From Bilabrum cf. latius (Eukaryota): DNA of 38,401 nt. Each line of letters starts with the position of its first letter. The first letter of the stretch is position 1. This document shows positions 5,624-30,154 of the stretch, piece after piece. Made by a program: the position numbers and the translations under genes. The stretch is taken from positions 1-38,401 of the forward strand of contig OZ237778.1 of the NCBI GenBank assembly GCA_965178125.1. Reading direction: 5' to 3'. The notes beneath the pieces are model-generated. The model ran no database searches. It was not told where the DNA came from and worked only from the letters and a program-made list of their open reading frames with translations.

Positions 5624-8050
5624 ATGGGACGTTCAGGACAAAAGGTGAATCCAGTAGGTTGAAGAGTAGGTATTTATCGAAAATGAAAAAATAGTTGAAT
5701 TCAAAACAAACTAAATTATAAAGATTTATTATTAACAAGTATAAACACTTCAAAATTATTACGTTCGTTTTTACGTTTCGGTAAAAAACGACGATTATTC
5801 TTTTTTAATTATAATTTACTTAATAATAATAATTTAGATATCTTTTGTTTTTTTACTAGAATAAAACGTAAAAAAATGAAATTTAGGCAAAAAAAGAAAA
5901 AAATTAAAAGGTATAATAGAAAGTTGCAACAGTTGATGTTAAATTATTATGAAAAAAAATGAGATGTTTTTTTTAGTAAAAAACGATCGAAAATAAAGAA
6001 AATTAAACAAAAACACACAAAGCTCCAAAATGATTATAATAATTCTTTTTATTGACTTTATTTTAACAATTTGAGAAAATTTCAAAAGAATAAATTTAAA
6101 TCAAAAAAACCTTTGAAACTTTTTCAAAAGAGTAAAATTAAATCAAAATTGAAACAAAAGAAAGGTATATATAAACGAAAATTTTGATATTTTCGAGAAT
6201 GATGATTTTCAAAAGTAAAAAGAAGATCTTTTAGAAAATCTAGATTAAAGAACAAAAAATTTAATAAAGTTGAGTTGAAATTAAAACAACGAAATTATAA
6301 GAATAAACGAATGATAAATAAGATAAAAAAAAGAAAAACTTATTATTATCATTTTTTTTATAATATTGAATATTTTAGTTTATATTTTTCTTTTAATTTA
6401 TTAAATAACTTTCCTAAAACTTTCAGCACAAAACACAGAGATCATTTAACTTTAGCGATTTTAAAAGAATTATTCTTAAAATCATTTTTATTCTCTAATA
6501 ATTTGTTTAAATATAGTATTTTACATTTAAATTACAAAAAGTTAGAATCCTTTCAATCAGAATTTAACATAAGTTACGAAACAAGCTATATTCACAAGTT
6601 GATAATGAATAAATATAACTTTCATTATCAAGATAAAAGTTTTTTTAAACATAAATTAACTTACAGTGATAATTTTTTTGCTGTTAATAAAAAACATTCA
6701 ATAGGTAAAAGAATTTTGAATAAATTTAGCTTTAATAACAATCTTAGACATAATATTTTTAAGAAAACAGCACGATCAAATCTAGTATACCAAAGTTATT
6801 TTATAAATTCTCGATATAATTTTAATCAATTATTTTTTAATAATTTAACTTTTTATGATAAAATCATAAAGTCAACAATTAAAAATATTTCTAGAAATAA
6901 AATTTTTCCAAGTTTAAAACTTTTAAGTTTTTTAAAGTTAAATAATTTGTATTCTTTACGTTTATCTTTTTTTTATAAAAAACCAAATCTTTTTTTTACC
7001 AATAAAATTTTACAAAAAACTTTTAAATTTAATAACTATGTATTAACCAATGTGAAAAAGAAAAAAAAAATTTTAAACATTTATAATACTACCAAAATTT
7101 TCTTTAAGTATAAATATTTGAAAAATCCTTTAAAATTAATTAAAAGTAGTTTAAATATTTTGACTGGATATAATACTGACGTTTTTTTTGGATCTGTTAA
7201 TTCGTTATACAAATTTTCTCGAAAAAAATATTGAGATCCTGACAATTTAAAAAAATTACCCACCTATAGACAAAAGTTATATTTAAAACAGATACGCTTA
7301 CGTAAATACGAATTGAAAAAATTAGTTTTTAAATTTTATCGTCGAGTACGTAGACGTTATATACAATTAAAAAATTTAAAATTTTTACTTCGATTATGTA
7401 TGTTAACAAGTTTCGTTAAACGCCCTATAATCTTTGCTCGGTATTTTTGTTATCAAATACATAAATTTCCTAAAAAATATAGACAAATTCCTTTTTTAAA
7501 ATACGTGATGTCTATATTCTTAACATTATCTAAAAGAAAAGAAATTTTAGGATCAAGGATACAAATACAAGGACGGTTTGATAAATGAAGAAGATCAAAA
7601 ATCATTATAAAAGAAAGCGGCATTTTGACTACACGTAAAAAGTTTTTTTTTATAGAATACGGAAGCGCCTCAAGTTTTATAAAAAAAGGGAGTTTTGGCA
7701 TAAAAATTTGATTATCATATAGTTCTAAATTTTCAAATTTTTATAAAAAGTGTTTAAATTCTTATTTTAATTATTCAAATTTTTATAAAAAAAATATTTT
7801 AAAAAAGAAAAAATTGTTGAATAATTTTTTTCAAAATAAAACATTGTTAAAAAAAGAAAGAAGAAAAAGAAAAAATAAATTTAAATTTAAACAAAAACAT
7901 AGCAAATATAGAAAGAAAAAAATTACTTCTAAAAATAGATTAAAAAAGAATTCTAATTCAATCACTTATTATTGAAATTATAAAAAAATAAAATGGTTAT
8001 TACAACAAAATAAGATTACTGAATTAGTAAATTTAGGTAATTTAGCTTAA
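5624..8050 (+). CDS. rps3: Ribosomal protein S3, greatly expanded (808 aa)
   Basis: N-terminal GQKVNPVGWRVG; C-terminal domain ILGSRIQIQGRF...GSFGIKIW; single frame open throughout with UGA=Trp. Confidence 0.9.
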
Positions 8051-8063
8051 AACTTAAATTTAA

Positions 8064-8477
8064 ATGAATTTTAAACCTAAACAATGAAAAAAAAAAAAAA
8101 ATAGTAAACAACGTTTAAGCTTATTAAAAACAAAACGTTCATGTGTAAATGAGCATGGAATTTATGCGTTAAAAGCAATAGAACCTGGCAAATTATCTTT
8201 AAGTACAATCGAAGTTATTAGGCGCTTTATAATGAATAAAACAAAACGTAAATCAAAACTTTGATCGAGAATTTCTCCAGATAGTCATATGACTAGAAAA
8301 CCTGCTGAAGTTAGAATGGGAAGAGGTAAGGGAGCTATAGATCACTGATTCGCGCGCATAAAAAGAGGGCAAATTATTTTTGAAATAAATATGAATCAAT
8401 CAAACCTTTTAAAAAATTTATTAAATAAAATTGATCATAAAATTCCTTTTAAAAGTAAAATTATAAAAATAAAGTAA
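8064..8477 (+). CDS. rpl16: Ribosomal protein L16
   Basis: TRKPAEVRMGRGKG...W...GQIIFE; absent from the ORF track because of TGA codons. Confidence 0.96.
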
Positions 8478-9736
8478 TGAAAGAGTTACAAAATAAAAAT
8501 AATTCGAAAGAATTACAATTGCCTGTAAAAAAATATGAATCTTTTTCATCAAATCGTATTTTTTTTATCGAACAACTTTTGGGTATTTTACAATTTACCA
8601 TTAAAAAAGGGTTAAAAAAAAAATTAAAAAGAGAACTGAATTTATTATTATTAGAATTATATAACAAAGATAACACATTTTTTTATAAATTCAATAAAAG
8701 GTTAATTCGGTATAAACAACCATATAAAACTGTATCAAAACGAAAAAAAAAATGAAAACGTAGATTATTTTCGGTGAAGCAAAAAGAATTTAGAGTAACT
8801 CCGTTTCTAAAAAAAAATTTTTTTACAAAGAATTTTAAACGTTTTTATAGAAGACGACCTAAGAATTATTTGATTTTTTTAAATTCTAGAGAACAAATGC
8901 ATAACATTAAAAAAATTTATATAGATTTAGTAAAAGGTGAAACAACCTCTCAATTTAGAAGCACTGTTTCGAAACAAATAAAATTTTTTTTTAATATAAA
9001 ATCTCTAAAAACACAAAAAAAGATAGGATGAATAAAATATTTAATTCGTAAATATTTAAGACAAAAATATCCAAATAAAAAATTTTGAAATCGTTACAAA
9101 ACACCAGTACATTATTCAAAAAAATTCATATATAAACGTAAGTTAAAGTTTAGGTTATTAAGAAAAAAAAGAAGAAGTAAGTTGTGACGTTTTCTAAAAT
9201 TAAAAAATAAGCATAACGGTTATAATTTCAGTAATTTAAAAACAATAAATACAAAATCTTTAGTTAAAGCAAAAACATATATATCTAATTCATCAAAACG
9301 AAGTAAAAATTTATCAATTTATAACAAGTACTTTTATTATAAATTCGCCAAAAAAGTTAAATTTAATAGAGAAGGGCATACTTGAAAAAGAGTTTATTCT
9401 ACTGAATCATTACAAACTTATCAAGTTGTTTTTTATAGTTCTGATAAATACAATTTAACTAAAGTTCAAAAATATATAAAAAATTTATTAAAAAATAATT
9501 TAAAAGTTAAATTACTTATACACCCTATACAAAAAAAAGTAAAAAAAGTAACTGTTCTTAAATCACCTCATGTCAATAAAACAGCACGAAGTCAATACGA
9601 TCAAGTTAATTATAAATTACGAATAGAAATACAAAATAATAATTTAGTAAATAAAAAAAGAATATATTTAATTTTAGTTAAACTAAAAACTTATTTTTCT
9701 TTTTTAGATTTTTCTTTTAAATCTGTATTACTTTAA
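8477..9736 (+). CDS. rps10: Ribosomal protein S10 with ~300-aa N-terminal extension (419 aa; possible rps7-rps10 fusion)
   Basis: C-terminal TVLKSPHVNKTARSQY S10 signature; frame open from the ATG overlapping the rpl16 stop (TAATG). Confidence 0.85.
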
Positions 9737-9737
9737 A

Positions 9738-9810
9738 GTATTTCTAGCTCAACCGGAAGAGCTTTGACCTTCTAAGTCAATGGTTATGGGTTCAAATCCC
9801 ATGAAGTACT
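9738..9810 (+). tRNA. trnR: tRNA-Arg(TCT)
   Basis: Acceptor GTATTTC/GAAGTAC; anticodon arm TTGAC-CTTCTAA-GTCAA. Confidence 0.93.
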
Positions 9811-9827
9811 ATATATTTAATTTATTA

Positions 9828-11135
9828 ATGAATAATTATTTACATGTTAAAAATACTAAAGAAAACTTAATAAATAATGATTATAACAATTTTGTCATTT
9901 TATGATTTATATTATTAACTAATTCGGTTTTTCCTTCATTAGATTATAAAAACTTATCTTTTTTTAATTTATCAAATTCTTTATTTATTCGTTTTCAGTA
10001 TCCGGATTTATTTTTTATTTTAATTGAATTTTTTATTTTAGATATAACTTTATCGTTTTCACAATTAATCGATCTATGCGTGACAGATTATCCTTTTTTA
10101 AAACATCGTTTTGATTTAAGTTATATTTTTTTTTTATTTGATTTAAAATTTTATGTAGTATTAAATATTGCATTAACAGAATTTGGTATAATTAGTACTC
10201 TATTTTATGTATTTTTATCTGCTTTATGATCAGAAAGAGAAGTTTGAGACAGTATGGGTATACGTTTTTCAGAAAATCCTGGAATGCGTCGAATTTTAAG
10301 TGATTATGGTTTTCATGGACATTATGGGCGTAAGGATTATCCTTTATTGGGTACTTATGAATTACATTACAGCGAAGCTTTAAAAATTATTGTAAAAAAG
10401 ATTCCTTCATTTAGTCAAATGATGAGAACATTTATCTTCAAAGATTTGAATAACGTGGAACAAACAAATTTATCTTTTAAATCTTCTATATTTTTTATCT
10501 GTTTTAGTTGATTTAATTTTATTTCTCTAGATTTTTTGTTTTTTTTTATATTAATTTTATTCTTTGTTTTGTGAGTGTCTTTAATAAGTTTTGCTCCCTA
10601 TAAAGATCAAGGAACTTTTTCGATTCAATTTTACACATTATTTTTATTTTTAAGTTTATACTTGTCAGGAAGTTGTGAAAAATTTTATTTTATTTTTAAA
10701 GAACACACTAGTTTAAACAATTTAGATTCAATAAATTTTTTATTTGAATATTTATCATCTTCTAATATATTTTTGTCTTTTTTAAGTTTAATAATATTTT
10801 TTTCCTTTTTTTTATTTTATCAAAAATATTTGAATAAAGATGAAATTATAGATAAAGATATAGTTTTAAACTTGACATTGTTTTCAATATTATTTTTTTT
10901 TTGAATTATAGTAAAAGATTTTATTGAATTATTTTTGATTATAGAAGGATTTGCTTTTTTAAGTTTTATTTTAGTAGCTAGATCTCGTCAAACTAAATTA
11001 GGTTCTTCTGTTGGAATACGTTATTTATTGTTAAGTGGAATTCCTGCAGTGTTTTTCATTTATGGTATAAGTTTTTATTATTATTATACTACTTCTATTT
11101 TATTATATGATATTGATTCATATATTAATATTTAA
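9828..11135 (+). CDS. nad9: Nad9 fused in frame to the N-terminal part of Nad2 (435 aa)
   Basis: Nad9 motifs LIDLCVTDYP, WSEREVWDSMGIRF, RRILSDYGF..RKDYPL; no TAA/TAG before the Nad2-type helices ELFLIIEG...GIRYLLLSG...YGIS. Confidence 0.85.
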
Positions 11136-11143
11136 AAATTCGA

Positions 11144-12238
11144 ATGTCTTTTTATTATGAAAAATTTAAACTAAAAGATTATATTTTTGATGTTATCCAA
11201 TTTTTAATATTTAACTTAACAAAAATTTTGGGGTTAAATATCGTTTTTATATTATTATGGTCTAATTTCGATTTAGAGTTTAATGTAATAGAAGATAATT
11301 TATTTAATCAATCAATTTTTATGATAGAAAAAAATTTAATATCATGAAGATCTATAATAAATGATTCATTAATTGATTATACGATAAATTACAACAACTG
11401 AAATTTATTATTTTTTTGAAGCATAAGTTCAATATTATTTTTATTTTTGTTTAAGTGAGCTGCTTGACCTACTTATAATTGAGCTATTTTTATTTATAAT
11501 ATTTCTAATACAGGAGCAGCAGGTTTTTTATCTTTTTCAATGAAATTTGTATATGGTATCTTTATTTTAATTTTGAACATTTATCTTTTTAACTATTTAG
11601 ATATGTTTTGAAGTTTACTTTTACTAATGATAAGTATTTTCAGTTCTTTATTTGCAGTTTTAGGCGCTGTGAATGAACGTTTTATTAAAAAATTTTTACT
11701 ATATAGTTCTTTAGGTCATGTAAGTTTTATGTTACTAGGATTAGTTTACTTTTTAAATGGTGGCTTTGAAATGTTATTTCTATATTTGGTTATTTATACT
11801 TTAATGTCTAATATATCATGGTTATTTTTAGTTTCTTCATTACAAAATATTAAATTATTAAATTCATTTGTACTTTCTTTAAATAATGATACAATTTCTA
11901 AAGTAATTATAAGTTTAATGTTATTTTCTTTAAGTGGTTTACCTCCTTTTAGTGGTTTTTTTGTAAAATTTGAAATGTTATTATTATCAATATATAGTTC
12001 TGATTATATATTAGTTATAGTTTTACTCATTTTAAGTTTAATTACTCTTTTTTATTACATACGTATAATAAAAATAATCTTTTTCGATAAATTTGAGTTA
12101 TCAAAAAATTTAGGTGTAAGAGAAAATATATTACAACTTTTAATTAGTTTCAGTTTTATTTGTGTTATTTTTTTTATACTTTTTTTTGATTATACTATGG
12201 TATATTATTTAAAAAATTTCATAAATTGTTTTTTTTAA
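11144..12238 (+). CDS. nad2: NADH dehydrogenase subunit 2, C-terminal part (364 aa)
   Basis: FLFKWAAWPTYNW (cf. FKLGAAPFHFW), IKKFLLYSSLGH, SLSGLPPFSGFFVKF, FYYIRIIK. Confidence 0.9.
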
Positions 12239-12249
12239 TCATAATTTTT

Positions 12250-12471
12250 ATGATATATTTATATTTGATTTTAATCTTCTTTTTTTATTACAAAATTTTT
12301 TTGATCTTCGAAATTTTTAATATTTTAAATTTAAATCTTTTCTTTAACTTATTATTATTTTATACTAATATAAAATATAAAATTAATTATATTTTTATCT
12401 TTAATGTATTAACTTTTTGGATCATTAGTGAATCCAATTTCATAATTTTGAGAACTTCTTTTTACTTTTAA
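12250..12471 (+). CDS. Hypothetical hydrophobic protein (73 aa)
   Basis: ATG..TAA ORF filling the gap between nad2 and rps8; strongly hydrophobic; no confident motif. Confidence 0.45.
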   Translation: MIYLYLILIFFFYYKIFLIFEIFNILNLNLFFNLLLFYTNIKYKINYIFIFNVLTFWIISESNFIILRTSFYF

Positions 12472-12480
12472 AATTATCAA

Positions 12481-12870
12481 ATGAAAACCATCAAACAATT
12501 AATAAATTTAGTAAATTTAAATTTAAAACAACAACGCAGATGATTCTGTTTTAAAATTAAACATAATAATTTTTTTATTTATTATTTTTTAAATATATTA
12601 ATATTAGAAAATTATATAAGATCTTATCAATTATTTTATAAACAAAATTGTTTGTGAGTAGAAATTATATTATATAATAATATTTCTAATAAAAATTATA
12701 AGAAAATAAATCTTTTAAAAAAAAAAGAAAAAATTAAAATTAATAGTTTATGAACCAAACATAATTATGGTAACTTATTAATTTTAACAACTCCTTTTGG
12801 TTTATTAACGCATAAAGATTGCTTACGTTTAAACATAGGAGGGATACCTTTAATTAATTTAACTATTTAA
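12481..12870 (+). CDS. rps8: Ribosomal protein S8
   Basis: C-terminal LILTTPFGLLTHKDCLRLNIGG; 129 aa; directly upstream of rpl6. Confidence 0.93.
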
Positions 12871-12875
12871 GAAAA

Positions 12876-13409
12876 ATGTTTTTTTTTAAAAGAAATATAA
12901 GATTTTATGTTAAAACAGGAAAATTTTGAGTGTGTTTAAAAAAACAACAGGATAAAGAATCAGTGTCCCATATACTTTGTAAATTAAAAAATAAAAATTT
13001 TAGAATTTTACAAAATAAGACAAATTTATATTTTATGGTTAAAAATTTAAATAATGTTTTATTTTGGAAATTATTAGAAATTAACTTATCGAGTTTAAAC
13101 GTTTGATGATATTATAAATTTAAATTAGTAGGTGTAGGTTATAAAATCAATTTCGATCAAACGACTAATATGTTAAATATAGCGTATGGCTATAGTAACT
13201 TACAAAAAGTAGTACTTCCAAAAAGTATTAATTTTTTTGAATTACCTGAACGTCAGTTGTATGGCATAAGTTCTATGAATAAGATGAACTTAATTAACTT
13301 TTTAACAAAATTAGAAAAAATTAGACGATTTGATCCTTATAAAGGTAAGGGTTTAATATTCGAAAATAAATTTTACTTACGTAAAATAAATAAAAAAAAT
13401 GATAAATAA
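12876..13409 (+). CDS. rpl6: Ribosomal protein L6
   Basis: LVGVGYK and IRRFDPYKGKG motifs. Confidence 0.93.
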
Positions 13410-14178
13410 ATCTTCAATTTATGATTCTTTAAATTATAAACATTTGATTTTTACACGTTCAATTATAGGACACACTGCAAGTAAAGTTACACGTTTTATT
13501 AATTCATTTATTACTGGATGACGAGGTAATATAGCAATTTTTGACATTTTTTTAATCCGTATATCATTATTAAATTTCTATATTATTCTGAAATGAAGTG
13601 GATATAGGCGGTTGAATTTGTTATTATATTTAAAAGATCAAAGGTTTTTAAATTTAGTTAACCGTAATTGATTATTACATAATAAGAATTATCACGGTTT
13701 TAATAGAAAAAATAGTTTATTAGGACATATATTTACTTCTCATTCATGATTAGGAGGTATTATTTCGAATTGAAATATATGATATTCTTTCTTTGAAAAT
13801 ATAAAAAATCTTGAAGATAAAAAGATACATGTGTCAAAGAGTGCTCAAAGATATCTACGAAAATCACGAGGTTTATTATTACGTCAAGCACATCCATCAT
13901 ATCCTGATTTAGTCTTATTATTAACTAGTGAAAAAATAGCCTTACAAGAAACTTATATAAATTATGTACCTACAACAGGTATATTAGATAGTGATCTGAC
14001 TACGAAAGGATTTAGTTTTTTTATTCCAGGTAATGATGATTCTGTTGACTTTCAATTATATTTTATAGAATTATTACAAAAAAGTTTACGAGAAGGAAAT
14101 TTATTAGAAACTCAAAACTTCTTTTTTTTTTTTTATTATTATTTAAAAAAATTTATAAATTTAAATGATGCATTTTAA
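13399..14178 (+). CDS. rps2: Ribosomal protein S2
   Basis: IGH, FITGWRGNIAIFD, WLGGIISNW, PDL, GILDSD, IPGNDDS. Confidence 0.93.
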
Positions 14179-17100
14179 ACCAAGATATTCTTTATCTTTT
14201 AAGCTTAAAAGTAAAATTTGATCTTATAAAAATTCTCGTTTAAGGTTATTTGTAGATAAACGAGGAAGACGTTTCTTACGAAAAGGACGAAATCAAAGGA
14301 TTAAACGAGTATTAAAAAATATGAAATGAATGACTATTCGTTGACCTTTTGGTTTAAGTTTGAACTTATTGAACTCTCGCAAAAGACGTAAAAATTATAT
14401 ATTTAGAGCACGTTGAAAGTATAAAAGTTTTTTTTTAAGACAACAAGGTTATAGAAAATCTTTAGGTAAAATTAAATATAGAAGGTTAAAAGTAATGTTT
14501 AAAAATATATTAAATAAAAATTTTTTATTTAAATATTTATCATTTTTAAAAAATATAGAATTGCGTTTAGATATATTATTATATAGATTAAAATTTAGTA
14601 TAACTCCCTTTTCTTCAATAACATTATTAAATAAAAAAATATTTTTACTTAATAATAATTTTAATTATAAGTTTAATTCTGTTTGTAGAATCGGAGACAT
14701 TATATCTATTAATTGAAATTTATGAGAACTAGTTCGTTTTATTTTTTTGAGTAAATTACGAATTCGTTATTTTCGTTTGTTTTTAAACACAAAACGTTTA
14801 AATTTTAAATATAAAAGGTATATAAAAAATTATCAATTGAATTATAAAAATATTAATCTTATTCAATTCAAAAACAATAATAAAAATTTAAAACAATTAA
14901 ATAACCTGATTTACTTTGTAAAAACCAATATTTTAAAAAAAAACTTCAAAAGAAAACTTAAGCATGTGTTAATTAACAAAAAATTAAAGTTTGTGAATTT
15001 AAATTTAAAATTAAATAATATATTAAATAATTACTTCTACTATAAAAGGTTAAAAGTTAAAAATTACAATCTTTTTAAAAATAATTATATAATAAAAAAA
15101 ATTAAGTCAAAAAACTTCAAATATTGATTAAAACGTAAGATAAAACAACAGATTAAGTTTAAAAAAAGTTTTAGAATAATAAAAAAAAAAAAAATATTAA
15201 GTTATAAAAATTTTAATAAAAAGAGCAAATATTTTTGATTAAAACGAAAAAACAAAAAAGTTAAAAAAAAGTTTATTGCTCGTAAATATTACAAATCAAA
15301 ATTTCGCCGGTTAATAAAACAATCAAAAAACTTAACAAAAATAGATTCAAAGGTTTCGTTTGTAAAATGAGATAAATTAAAAAAAAATAAAAAAAAATTA
15401 AAATTATTTAAAGTTTATTTTAAAAATTTTATGAAAATGAAAAAAAGTAAAAAAAATAAAAAACGAATAAAAACTTTAAAATGAAAGTTAAATAGGTATA
15501 ATTATAAGCGTATAAATGTTTCTAAAAAAAAAATTTTATTTTCTTTTTTTAATAACACTTCTCAATGAAAGTTAAAAAAACAAAGATGGTTAAAACACTT
15601 TTGATGAATTTCTAATAAATCTTTTAAAAAGAATAGATTAATAAAAAATTGTACGATTAACAAATTTAAATATAATAAAGTATTTGTAAATAATTTCCAA
15701 AAATTTGAAAATTCGAAAATTTTGTTGACAAAATTATCTAATATACGATACAATATTATTAATAAAAATTTTAATAATAAATTAATTAGTTTAAACGAAA
15801 ATAAATTTAATTTGGATATTTGATCAAAAAATTCAAAACCTATGTTAAAAATAAAAAAAAAACACACATATTTTTTTAAAAATTATATGTTTTTTTTTTT
15901 TTCTATATTTTTTAAAATAAGATTAAGACAGTTTTTTAATTCGATAAATCATAATAAAGAAAAAAACTATAATTATATTAATTCCTTAAAAAAAGTCAAA
16001 GGTAATTCTTTATTTGTTTATTTATTAATTATAAAAATAAATTATTTATTGAAAAAAAAACATACATATTCAATACCTTCAAGATTTATTTTTAACAAGT
16101 TTAACTCTGTAATTAAGTTAAAAAATATGAAAAAAAATAAAGTAGAGAGTGTAAAATTTTCTTTTCGATATAATAAATTAAAAAATGTTTTTAATAATTT
16201 TAAATATTTATTATTTTTATTAAAATTTAAACAATTTATAACTATGAATTTTCGATTAAATTCAAAAAAATTAAACTTAATAGATTTTTATGTTTCTGAT
16301 TTTTTGAATTTAGTAAATAATTTCATAAATAAAATATATATATATTATAAGTATTCAAAAGCTAATTCTTTTTTTTTATTCAATTATTCTTTTTGTAATT
16401 TACGAAAAATTAATCAAAATATTTATTTTATTACTTCATTAATGATAAAAAATTTGACTATTAGAAATAATTATAAATTATTTAAATCGTTGCAACATAC
16501 TAATACTTCGGTGTATAATTCAAAAAATACTGATAATTTAAAAAGTAATATCAAAATATTTTATAGAAATATTTTAAAAGAAATAAAAGAATACAGAAGA
16601 GAAATAAGAAAAGATTTAAAATTAAGAAAAAAATATAAAGCTAAAATTATGAGACCAAAAAAAATAGATAAGTTAACCCTTCAACATTTTATATCAAAAT
16701 TTATTTTAAAAATAACTTATAATAATTTTTTATATAAGTTAAATGTTAAAGAAAAAAAATATTTTTTTAAAAAATTAAAACTTTTAAAACTTTTAAATAC
16801 AAAAAAAAACATTAATATTACGAAAAATTTAACTTTTTATCAAAAAAAAAAAAACAAAAAAAAGATAAAGAATCTTTGATCTTTGAAAGTACAAAAAAAT
16901 AATTTTAACACTAAGATAAATAAACGTTTAAAGAATTTTGAAATATATCCTCAATTCAAACTTTCGAAAGTAAGAAAAAAATTTAAAAAAAGGTTTAAAA
17001 AGAGAAATTTAAAGCAATATATAAAAACAAAGTTATTTTTAAAAAGTAAAAGATTAAAAAAAATGAGTAAAGAAAGAATTCGTAGAAGATTATCATTTCC

Positions 17101-17356
17101 TTTAAATAATGCGAAATCATCTAGATTAAGTCGACATGTTTTATTGAAAAATAAACATATTAAGAAATTTAATTTTGACCTATTGAGTATTAAAATGAAC
17201 AATTGATATTACTTACCTTCATTTATTGAAATGAATTTTGAAATTTTAAACTTTATTATCTTAAGTAATCCTTTAACAGAAAATATTTTAACCGGATTTT
17301 CCTATAATTCATTTTTAAAATCTTATATTAGATTTAATAAACGTCAAGGTTTTTAA
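14165..17356 (+). CDS. rps4: Ribosomal protein S4, giant (1063 aa)
   Basis: IELRLDILLYRLKF...RIGDIISI S4 domain; C-terminal LPSFIEMNFEIL; four track ORFs join in one frame through TGA. Confidence 0.88.
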
Positions 17357-17424
17357 TTTTGTTTATGATTTGAAATTGTCTGTTTTTTTATTGTTGTTTT
17401 TCTATTGAGATCATTCAATAGAAC

Positions 17425-17496
17425 GAGAGTGTAGTTTAATGGCAGAACGTTAGTCTTCAAAACTATATGGTAAAGGTTCGAATCCTTTCTCTCTTG
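17425..17496 (+). tRNA. trnW: tRNA-Trp(TCA), reads UGA
   Basis: Anticodon loop CT-TCA-AA; T arm AAAGG-TTCGAAT-CCTTT. Confidence 0.93.
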
Positions 17497-17503
17497 ATTA
17501 ATT

Positions 17504-27679: not shown

Positions 27680-29287
27680 ATGACAAATATAACAAAATTA
27701 TTAAGTATTTTTTACTTAAAGTTACAATTCGTAGAGATGGTTTTAGATTGGCTTCAACGCTCATATTTCTATATTTTAAATTTTTTATACAACATTTTTT
27801 TAATGATATTTGAAAATTTTAGATTATTATCATTTACAAATTTTTTTTTGAAATTTTTAAGTTTATCAATATTTTTCATTTTTTTTTATTTCGATACATT
27901 CTTTTTTAATCAAGAAAATACAAGTGTTTTTATTGATGGGGTAGATTTAAGCGAATTTGAGTTTAAATGGGATGAGCTTTTTTTATTAAGTCCTGTTTAC
28001 GAAACTTCTGAATGTTTTTATGTATCTATTAATTGGGATTCGTTTGCATTAATTGATAATATAGCGGATTCCACAAATTCATTGGAAGTAATTAAGCAAC
28101 GAGTATTAAGTCCTTCTTGGTCTGATTATTTTAAAAAACCTTTTCGTTTAATAATTTCATTAGTTAGCGAAGGATTTTATTATATGATGTATATTGAGTG
28201 AACTGTTTTAGAGCACATGTTAGAAATCTTATTTCAAGAAAGTAACGATTCTGAACTTGGTAACAAGGTGGAAAAATTTTTAGAATTATGCAAAACTGAA
28301 ACAGGCAATTTAGCTTGTGTAACAGAAGCTAAATTTAATGAGGCTTTTAAGCCTAAAGATACAAACGATTGAAAAAAGTTAAAAACTATATTAGAAGCAG
28401 CAAAAAAGGGACAGCTTTTAGGACACCAGTCACATAGTACAACGCCTAATAAGGATAAGGTGGCCAAAGAAGTAATTTTTCACCTCAAGAAAGTTCATGA
28501 TAATTCTTGATATAAACTTTTTAATGATATTGGCTTTCATGTTAATCAAAATTGGCCAGTTTATGTAGGCGGTTTTATTGTATTAGGAGCAGCAGGTTGA
28601 TATCATTATGATGAGTGTTTGGGCTGATATAAATATACTTACTCTAGCGTTTGGGATACAATTGAATTGTCGAAAGATCAATTAAGTTGTACAGCCCAAC
28701 AGAGGTACGTTAATTATCACTTTAATAAATTTAAAGCAAACTTTAGCGTAGAATCATACTTTTGAATAGAATTTACTGAAGTTGAATTAACTAATTTTAA
28801 AAATACTTTTTTTTCACAAGGTAATTTCACATCGACAAATTATTATAAAGTAGTTCCTAAAATTTTTAAAAATAGTGTGGGTTCTAATGTATGGGTATCT
28901 ATTTTAAGAGAAAATCCTTTTTTTTTTATGAAATTAAATCAATCAAAAATAATATATATGTCCAATGCAGAAGAAATATTAAATCAATTAGAAAAGTTAT
29001 TTGTTGATGATTACCTTTTTTATAGCGTAGGTTTAGTTATAGGAGGCGTAGGTCTAATAAATTGGGTATTAAATAATTTAGAAGTTATTGATATTTTTTT
29101 AGAAGATAAACTTTTTTTTCTATGAATAATCGAATATTTTGATAATTTAAGATTAATGAGTATACCTTTAAAAGATGTTTTTTTTAAATATGAAGAACAC
29201 AAGGCTTATTTGAATATTGAAAATTTTAAAATTAAAGAAAAAACTTTTAGTGAATGATTAATTTTGTACAAAATTAAAAAATTCTAA
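27680..29287 (+). CDS. orf535, orphan multi-pass membrane protein
   Basis: 1608-nt frame open with UGA=Trp; begins with the AAATTTAAATG start context; TAA abuts the nad11 ATG. Confidence 0.8.
27723..27759 (+). repeat. 37-nt direct repeat shared with the nad11 5' region (29325-29361)
   Basis: TACAATTCGTAG(AG/GA)ATGGTTTTAGATTG(G/A)CTTCAACG, 34/37 identical. Confidence 0.9.
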
Positions 29288-30154
29288 ATGTATTTTTTAA
29301 TTAATCAAGAAATTTTTTTGAATGTACAATTCGTAGGAATGGTTTTAGATTGACTTCAACGTTTATGATTACAAATTCCACGTTTTTGCTATAATGTTTT
29401 TTTAGAGGTAGTAGGGAATTGTAGAATGTGCTTAATAGAACTAGAAAAATTAACAAAACCTACAGCATCATGCGCTGCTTTATTAGTTTCCAATATTTCT
29501 TTATATACTTACAGTCCTTTTGTAAAAAAAGTACAAGAAGGTGTTATGGAATTCGAATTAAATAACCATCCTTTAGATTGTCCTATTTGTGATCAAGGAG
29601 GAAAGTGTGACTTACAAGAATATTCAAAAAGTTTTGGTACAGATCGAAATCGAAACTTTCAATCTTTGAGACGTCCTGTCCAAGAAGATTCTACAGAACC
29701 TATTATAAAAATGACCATGGTACGTTGTATTCAGTGTACCCGTTGTATACGTTGCTTTAATAACTTTACTAATAAATACTTTTTGGGTACTTTTGGTAGA
29801 GGGGTAGACACAGTAATCGGTAGTTATTTAGATTATTTTTATCAATTAGAATATCTAAATTTTGTAATTAATTTATGTCCAGTAGGGGCATTAACTTCAA
29901 ATACAAACTCGTTTGAAGATAGAAATTGAGAATTAAAAAGTAAAACAAGTAGAAGTGCTTTAAGTAGTACCTCTAATAAATTAAATTATCAATACAAACT
30001 TCGTTCTAGTACTTCAATAGGATCCTCTAATTTAATGTTTGAAACAAATGTGGAAAGTTTATTAAATAAATATTATAGCTCTTTTTTGGGTATTTGATCT
30101 TTATTAATTTCAGATAAAGAAGTTAACGAAACCAGTAAAGAACATAGGAGCTAA
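29288..30154 (+). CDS. nad11: NADH dehydrogenase subunit 11, N-terminal Fe-S part only (288 aa)
   Basis: IPRFCY, GNCRMC, HPLDCPICDQGGKCDLQ, RCIQCTRCIR, CPVGALTS, RNWEL. Confidence 0.93.

Follow-up and report, generated by a model that had tools for sequence, protein, structure and literature searches.

How does a gene for Nad9, the 30-kDa subunit of complex I, end when its reading frame carries no stop codon at the place where Nad9 proteins usually finish, and runs on instead into part of a second subunit gene? The question is raised by positions 9828-11135 of contig OZ237778.1 from Bilabrum cf. latius (assembly GCA_965178125.1). We analyzed the forward strand of this contig from position 1 to 38,401, and this whole stretch of 38,401 bases is referred to here as the window. 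The original prediction, made from the letters alone, was an in-frame fusion of nad9 with the N-terminal half of nad2. That prediction was borne out, as contigs from two other studies show the same junction without a difference and the frame is kept in relatives. We consider it likely that the locus holds a real, selected nad9-nad2a fusion of a small protist lineage, with nad2 cut at the loop between transmembrane helices (TM) 6 and 7, and that its product is a 435-residue precursor. The relatives referred to throughout are two proteins, P0003 and P0004, and a metagenomic locus, L001. The features are the following.

9737..9811, + strand: tRNA-Arg (UCU), found by ARAGORN and as an Rfam tRNA match of 64.9 bits; it bounds the fused gene on the 5' side, and the same tRNA stands before the fused open reading frame (ORF) of L001, at 9920-9994.
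9828..11135, + strand: continuous nad9-nad2a frame, 435 codons plus TAA, from the translation with genetic code table 4, the stop census, and colinear relatives.
9828..10457, + strand: Nad9 (NDUFS3/NuoC, 30-kDa subunit) domain, codons 1-210, from PF00329, solved NDUFS3 chains, and a ratio of nonsynonymous to synonymous divergence (omega) of 0.035.
10458..10481, + strand: polar linker EQTNLSFK, codons 211-218, with no indel against L001 and in-frame indels only against P0004.
10482..10529, + strand: extra hydrophobic segment ("TM0", SSIFFICFSWFNFISL), codons 219-234, from a hydropathy scan; clade-specific, and a candidate extra membrane helix.
10533..11132, + strand: Nad2 N-terminal part, TM1-TM6, codons 236-435, from alignments with full-length Nad2, hhalign, and an omega of ~0.08.
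11133..11135, + strand: TAA ending nad2a, within the Nad2 TM6-TM7 loop; an aligned stop stands in L001 (11318-11320), and the P0003 and P0004 proteins finish at the matching alignment position.
11144..12238, + strand: nad2b, with its own ATG, an N-terminal extension with a hydrophobic helix (~codons 13-39, 11180-11260), and then TM7-TM14, from PF00361 and hhalign.

The fused frame opens at the ATG at 9828, 17 nucleotides past the tRNA-Arg gene. It contains six TGA codons, at 9903, 10227, 10245, 10509, 10572, and 10902, and zero TAA or TAG before 11133. Translation with table 4 and the stop census thus agree with the earlier observation that only TGA codons follow the Nad9 motif SQMMRTF (codons 196-202, 10413-10433) and that the first TAA is the one at 11133. 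Support for the reading of TGA as tryptophan comes from a tRNA at 17424-17497 whose anticodon is UCA (ARAGORN). Across the 30 window ORFs, in-frame TGA codons number 149 vs 20 for TGG, and the conserved tryptophan positions of the Nad9 motif WSEREVW are occupied by TGA. All 30 of these ORFs stop at TAA, and TAG serves as a stop in 0/30 and never occurs in frame. The other two frames of 9828-11135 contain 41 and 24 TAA or TAG codons (0.0747 per codon), and at that density the chance of 225 codons staying open is 2.6e-8.

The Nad9 part of the frame was recognized by PF00329 with 75.6 bits (cut-off 22.5; E 6.3e-21), over profile positions 18-123 of 124. Compared with solved NDUFS3 chains, residues 75-220 of the fused ORF (P0001) align to residues 35-180 of the plant Nad9 chain, which has 190 amino acids (E 3.9e-25), and the colinear stretch takes in the QEFRxF-type motif at the C-terminus and stops no more than ten residues short of the chain C-termini. 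When 1.84 billion representative proteins were searched with a profile, stand-alone Nad9 proteins among the best 150 of 3,395 matches end at profile position ~202-224, and 149 of those 150 are 137 to 351 amino acids long. The fused ORF departs from this form in having 225 codons beyond the usual end, and its predicted linker peptide DLNNVEQTNLSFK would run on into the hydrophobic segment.

These 225 codons, the tail, align with full-length Nad2 from its N-terminus to the loop past TM6. A profile of the four known tails was matched by hhalign to a profile of 20 full-length Nad2 proteins with a probability of 93.6% and an E value of 2e-7, tail positions 145-228 against Nad2 positions 105-189. 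In the tail, the only matches of the fused ORF to solved chains found with phmmer were weak, at E 0.018-0.041 for NuoN, and MbhH was also weak, in a range reaching E 0.55. A mixed profile of the tail and full-length Nad2 matched plant Nad2 at 9e-147, with the profile dominated by the full-length homologs. The conserved glutamate that the original prediction had placed in IIEG, within the Nad2 N-terminal helices (codons 371-374; the Glu codon, 373, is at 10944-10946), is borne out by the Nad2 alignments as the TM5 glutamate and is invariant in 40/40 aligned rows.

The remainder of Nad2 is encoded by nad2b, which matches PF00361 over positions 73-294 (E 2.9e-20) and which hhalign places, with a probability of 99.9% and an E value of 2e-36, with its residues 97-324 against Nad2 204-434. 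Charged residues of the Nad2 proton path are the TM5 glutamate and the lysines of TM7, TM8, and TM12. In the displayed rows, the nad2b lysines of the LFK (LFKW) and FFxK (FFVKF) motifs align with lysines of full-length Nad2. The lysine of MKF is offset by one to two columns from the PK lysine of full-length Nad2, and is near-aligned only. The tail matches Nad2 to ~189 and nad2b matches it from ~204, and therefore the two pieces are complementary, with the cut in the TM6-TM7 loop. The PF00361 domain is complete only when both ORFs are combined. From these alignments, nad2 is split in the TM6-TM7 loop between the 9828-11135 ORF and the next ORF. Some full-length Nad2 relatives, P0009 for example, have long insertions in that same loop. 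Since nad2b is the very next ORF (11144-12238), the arrangement amounts to a fission plus a fusion, which goes beyond what had been predicted. From what is known of the family, the two Nad2 halves would be expected to assemble.

The relatives of nad2b are P0005 (96% identical), P0006 (77%), P0007 (70%), P0008 (59%, 550 amino acids), whose longest contig equals that of P0004 in length, and the L001 gene; the next match after this clade is 37% identical and is a full-length Nad2. A single Nad2 polypeptide of 14 (or 11) helices is not present in this clade, given the stop past TM6 and a separate nad2b gene in 6/6. All six nad2b genes, the window's included, start with ATG, and their N-terminal extensions, located at 11144-11410 in the window and at 11321-11930 in L001, are 94 to 288 residues long, the remainder being 59 to 96% identical. 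Within the first ~40 residues, 6/6 contain a hydrophobic 17-mer (Kyte-Doolittle 1.55-2.19). The window's nad2b begins 8 nucleotides past nad2a, in a different frame, whereas that of L001 begins directly past the stop and in the frame of nad2a. A very hydrophobic ORF of 103 codons at 12160-12471, which belongs to no family, overlaps the nad2b end in another frame; it could have arisen by chance or could encode a small membrane protein.

We examined whether the fused form recurs in other sequences. A word-based search of 5.8 billion proteins yielded P0003 (99% identical, 435 amino acids) and P0004 (73% in the alignment, 425 amino acids) as fused relatives. Both are singletons in their clusters, derive from Logan and JGI, and are labeled with the Nad9 domain only, so that annotation would score the Nad2 N-terminal part as missing. 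Among the best 150 of the 3,395 matches of the profile search (E 0.001), only one, P0004, which represents this clade there, covered both halves. A metagenome contig of 68,775 bases has two copies of the region (L001 and L002), 37,005 bases apart, and looks like a circular mitochondrial genome of ~37 kb that was assembled nearly twice round. The gene order in L001 is tRNA-Arg, a fused ORF of 438 codons (88% identical), its stop, and directly the ATG of a nad2b of 465 codons (11321-12718). The comparison with relatives for which the original prediction had called thus gives a consistent picture, as P0003 (99%), L001 (88%), and P0004 (73%) all keep the fused frame, making 4/4 clade sequences with the window, at 72-99% protein identity and colinear over the full length; the junction indels of P0004 are whole codons. 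No fused form outside the clade was found among the matches listed in the protein library searches. No further relatives were found in the viral contigs scanned, and the metagenome scan gave the one contig with L001 and L002.

Divergence between the window and L001 was estimated by the Nei-Gojobori method with table 4, at a synonymous divergence (dS) of ~1.1. Omega was 0.035 for the Nad9 part, 0.083 for TM1-3, and 0.082 for TM4-6, and for codons 205-235, comprising the linker and the extra segment with no indel, it was 0.235. An omega below 1 across the junction, in this frame, indicates that the frame is read through the junction. Our main argument for the dependence of nad2a on the nad9 start is that the frame has been kept. 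A nad2a with its own start would not be held in frame, because a frameshift would soon give nad9 a stop.

The junction was also compared with contigs from sequence runs of other origin. One contig (X1) equals the window throughout and may be its own source. A contig from another study (X5, record 12) covers 10383-10530 with zero differences, and two contigs from a third study, probably of DNA (X6, records 19 and 20), cover 10063-10504 and 10487-10699, again with zero differences. Across 10400-10580, where the original prediction had asked for read support, contigs from X5 and X6 cover the junction without a difference. Two contigs from a metatranscriptome (X18, records 3 and 4), which come from a ~95% relative, cover 10063-10485 and 10463-10707, with 23 and 10 substitutions, no gap, and no new stop. 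The junction differences in X18, with codons read by eye, are synonymous at 10436, 10454, 10505, 10517, and 10527, and there is an Ile-to-Met change at 10499. Neither an indel nor a TAA, the findings that the original prediction had named as contrary to a fusion, occurs near 10440-10520 in the X5, X6, or X18 contigs. An artifact, in which an assembly indel had removed the nad9 stop, or a dead nad2 remnant could be suspected from the composition of the junction region, which is 79.5% A+T with homopolymer runs, and from the lack of any Pfam match of the 225-codon tail alone at E <= 1. Yet two other studies have contigs with the identical junction, three relatives are colinear across it, the tail has an omega of ~0.08 and keeps the TM5 glutamate, and no other Nad2 N-terminal part was found among the window ORFs scanned against Pfam. 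We regard this explanation as extremely improbable.

Three ways of ending nad9 near the junction were considered and set aside. The original prediction had allowed for a stop created at the RNA level, and the part of that proposal that relies on C-to-U editing found no support, since the linker's only CAA (10461) is AAC in L001 and is unchanged in the RNA-library contig of X18. A -1 frameshift that would reach the TAA at 10451 was dropped because stops abound in the other two frames (65 in 435 codons) and no slippery heptamer was seen. The TGA at 10509 was considered as a context-dependent stop; that tryptophan is absent from P0004, where the frame continues.

A tethered product raises the problem of topology. 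TMH1 (the first transmembrane helix) starts on the intermembrane side in bacterial structures. The same orientation follows by alternation for ND2, in which the N-terminal end of TMH14 is on the matrix side (PMC8762328). With TMH1 starting on the intermembrane side and Nad9 in the matrix, exactly one extra span is needed. The tail has four hydrophobic segments before TM4, vs three in canonical Nad2, and the extra one sits between the polar linker and TM1; other Nad2 proteins begin a few residues before TM1, without the segment. It is kept in 4/4 clade sequences. With this one extra hydrophobic segment before TM1, the tethered topology is possible. The strongly basic TM5-TM6 loop (ARSRQTKLGSSVGIR) would fit the matrix side by the positive-inside rule. 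TM7 likewise starts on the intermembrane side, and nad2b carries one added hydrophobic helix. In mammals, NDUFA5, which is bound to NDUFS2/NDUFS3, contacts NDUFA10 on the matrix side of ND2, near the site of ND2 TMH1-3 in other organisms (PMC8762328). By that analogy, a tie from Nad9 to the front of ND2 would not be far-fetched on steric grounds.

Several observations weigh against a fused, membrane-tethered product. Besides the failure of Pfam to recognize the tail, TM1-TM3 were assigned from count and position, the significant alignment starting later. Foldseek comparison of the low-confidence tail model with the PDB found nothing at E <= 0.001; the weaker matches were mixed among ND2, ND4, and ND5, and almost all were antiporter-like subunits, one NuoK-like chain being among the others. 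At 16 hydrophobic residues, and ~14 in P0004, the extra segment is short. AlphaFold2 placed in it a helix of 13 residues (217-229) with a predicted local distance difference test (pLDDT) score below 50, and we did not count the model as support for a membrane-spanning extra helix. The model of the whole ORF, built on a poorly aligned, mixed multiple sequence alignment, had a pLDDT of 65.8, with a good Nad9 part and a tail at 50-65; the tail-only model had 66.5, with the linker and the extra segment below 50. The linker evolves faster than its flanks. Methionine codons occur at codon 224 in P0003 and in the X18 variant, and P0004 opens its extra segment with Met-Met; these could be internal starts in the lineages concerned. 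The X18 contigs break and overlap at 10463-10485, with depths of 17.1 and 4.78, and a transcript end may lie there. We took the break to be an assembly effect, because the probably-DNA run X6 also breaks, at 10487-10504. All the runs compared consist of contigs, in which transcript ends are not visible and whose depths cannot rank parts of a gene. Contigs carry no RNA ends and DNA is possible in an RNA library, and therefore what they establish is continuity, not expression as one transcript.

A rival proposal is that of two separate proteins, in which a precursor RNA is cut in the linker, nad9 acquires its stop by polyadenylation or is read from a non-stop mRNA, and nad2a is translated from a non-ATG codon or, in the relatives, from their methionines. 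Codon 215 is TTA in both the window and L001, so that a cut after T or TA with added A's would create TAA, and the methionine codons of P0004 and P0003, together with the RNA-library contig break and its unequal (if not interpretable) depths, would be in keeping with this. Table 4 also permits several non-ATG starts. However, separate translation of the halves would let the frame drift, given the dense off-frame stops (0.0747 per codon), yet 4/4 sequences are in frame with whole-codon indels, and the linker is under purifying selection in the nad9-nad2a frame. The only in-frame ATG codons of the fused frame are codons 1, 143, 153, 198, and 199, and the nad2 part contains no methionine. The linker GTG at 10455 and TTG at 10446 are GTA and TTA in L001, leaving only TTA/TTG or ATT/ATA as start-type codons common to the window and L001 at the junction, in a genome in which 26/30 listed ORFs start with ATG. 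The junction also has neither structured RNA (z +0.89 and +0.73; further values for junctions were -0.37 and +0.78) nor, at either junction, a tRNA-like or Rfam element (ARAGORN, Rfam). We judge two separate proteins to be improbable.

The course of events that we favor is a fusion that followed a split. A mitochondrial nad2 would have been cut in the TM6-TM7 loop, and its C-terminal piece would have become a gene of its own, nad2b, equipped with an ATG and, at its N-terminus, a new hydrophobic helix. TM1-TM6, the N-terminal piece, lacks a start codon of its own; since nad9 has no stop, the nad9 start would serve this piece as well. Translation from the ATG at 9828 would then give a 435-residue precursor consisting of Nad9, a short linker, an extra hydrophobic helix, and Nad2 TM1-TM6, and the single extra helix would put Nad9 in the matrix and the Nad2 part in its normal place. 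Translation as one chain, the spanning of the membrane by the extra segment, and the continued joining of the chain are the steps that we infer here from sequence. The chance that the chain stays joined seems to us about even. We would put at somewhat short of even the further proposal that the 435-residue product is whole in mature complex I, where the new helix would link Nad9, in the quinone module, to Nad2 TM1-TM6, in the proximal pump module, and TM7-TM14 would form a separate subunit with its own added helix.

The fused frame could also yield a polyprotein, a single chain that a protease later divides, and such a cut after insertion is possible, if on the unlikely side. The same sequence evidence would apply, as the polyprotein is a sub-case of the fusion, and conservation within the frame is lowest in the linker. 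This fate has been proposed for cox1/cox2 of Acanthamoeba castellanii, in the mitochondrial DNA of which Lonergan and Gray reportedly described a continuous cox1/cox2 frame in 1996. As in the window, two respiratory subunit genes there form one mitochondrial ORF with no stop between them, and the fate of the product is debated. The difference is that whole membrane subunits of the same complex, lying side by side, are joined in Acanthamoeba, whereas the partners here are a matrix subunit and a fragment of a split membrane subunit. Fused mitochondrial ORFs of this kind, cox1/cox2 in Acanthamoeba and cox1/cox3 in Gefionella, are mentioned in PMC12086354 and PMC13632651, the former of which lists both. 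The sequence has no mark of a cleavage site, however, and a cut would leave the extra helix still needed, and that helix is kept in 4/4 sequences.

Returning to the fusion itself, a close known counterpart within complex I is the single polypeptide NuoCD (PMC8762328). In NuoCD of E. coli and its relatives (NuoC/Nad9-NuoD/Nad7), the C-terminus of the Nad9 homolog also runs into another core complex I subunit, and NuoC/D chains from the PDB matched our Nad9 part. The partner there is the neighboring soluble 49-kDa subunit of the same module, whereas here it is half of a membrane antiporter-like subunit of the other module, for which a membrane crossing is needed. A split Nad2 is known from ciliates, which have an N-terminal piece (nad2_a/ymf65) with about ten predicted helices and a C-terminal piece (nad2_b) of ~166-178 amino acids (PMC3318907). 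The likeness is that Nad2 consists of two separately translated pieces. In the window the cut comes after TM6 (Nad2 ~189-204) and not after about ten helices, and the ciliate pieces have no nad9 fusion. The window is also not ciliate-like in its well-conserved cox3, its atp1, and its genes all on one strand. In stramenopiles, an nad11 reduced to the N-terminal Fe-S module is common (PMC6723347, PMC7194472), and split or truncated nad11 there shares with our case the division of a complex I gene, between ORFs or compartments; the subunit affected is a different one, and those sources describe no fusion to a second subunit. The window nad11 is itself of the reduced kind (288 amino acids). Together with the gene clusters, this truncated nad11 hints at a stramenopile, as a lead and no more. 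A search of the full-text literature, the coverage of which leaves out most subscription journals and supplements, found no description of a nad9-nad2 fusion. Apparently, no arrangement that joins a matrix-arm subunit to the N-terminal half of a split antiporter-like subunit has been described.

The modules of complex I are thought to assemble separately, and its arms move relative to each other in catalysis and deactivation. If the chain stays joined, it would covalently tie the quinone module to the proximal pump module, as a strut at the place where animals use the NDUFA5-NDUFA10 contact. The Q and ND2 modules would have to assemble together rather than separately, and the organism would offer a ready-made natural test of how far module independence is needed for assembly and arm movement. 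The split shows that an antiporter-like subunit tolerates a cut between TM6 and TM7, inside the first five-helix repeat. For genome evolution, the locus would be a clean case of fission after which the orphan half was captured by the upstream gene, with an added helix repairing the membrane topology in both new proteins.

The genomic setting is a compact, A+T-rich organelle genome with its genes all on the + strand. Pfam identified nad1, nad3, nad4, nad4L, nad5, nad6, nad7, nad9, nad11, cob, cox1-3, atp1, atp6, and many ribosomal proteins, Rfam identified the large and small rRNAs, and ARAGORN identified ten tRNAs, those for F, Y, R, W(UCA), K, Q, H, E, M, and C. With only ten tRNA genes in the window, most tRNAs must be imported. 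The nad11 gene (29288-30154, 288 codons) encodes the N-terminal Fe-S modules and lacks a molybdopterin-type domain; among the window ORFs scanned, Pfam named no further piece of nad11. Directly upstream is a 535-codon ORF with no assignment (27680-29287). Its start is a paralog of the nad11 N-terminus, with 51% identity over 39 residues (E 1e-9), and the DNA of the two 5' ends, 27711-27823 and 29313-29425, matches at 72%. The start of this ORF seems to derive from a partial duplication of the nad11 5' end.

The ribosomal protein genes are much enlarged by Lys/Asn-rich inserts (5624-8050, 8477-9736, 14165-17356), with an rps3-like ORF of 808 codons and an rps10 of 419 codons, and a 1,063-codon ORF without a Pfam match lies in the rps2-rps4 neighborhood. 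Spacing is tight elsewhere in the window as well. The rpl16 and rps10 genes overlap by one base (8477), the 535-codon ORF and nad11 (29287/29288) and likewise cob and nad4L (35888/35889) have zero spacer, and the run of rpl6, rps2, and the 1,063-codon ORF has overlaps of 11 and 14 bases (13399-13409 and 14165-14178).

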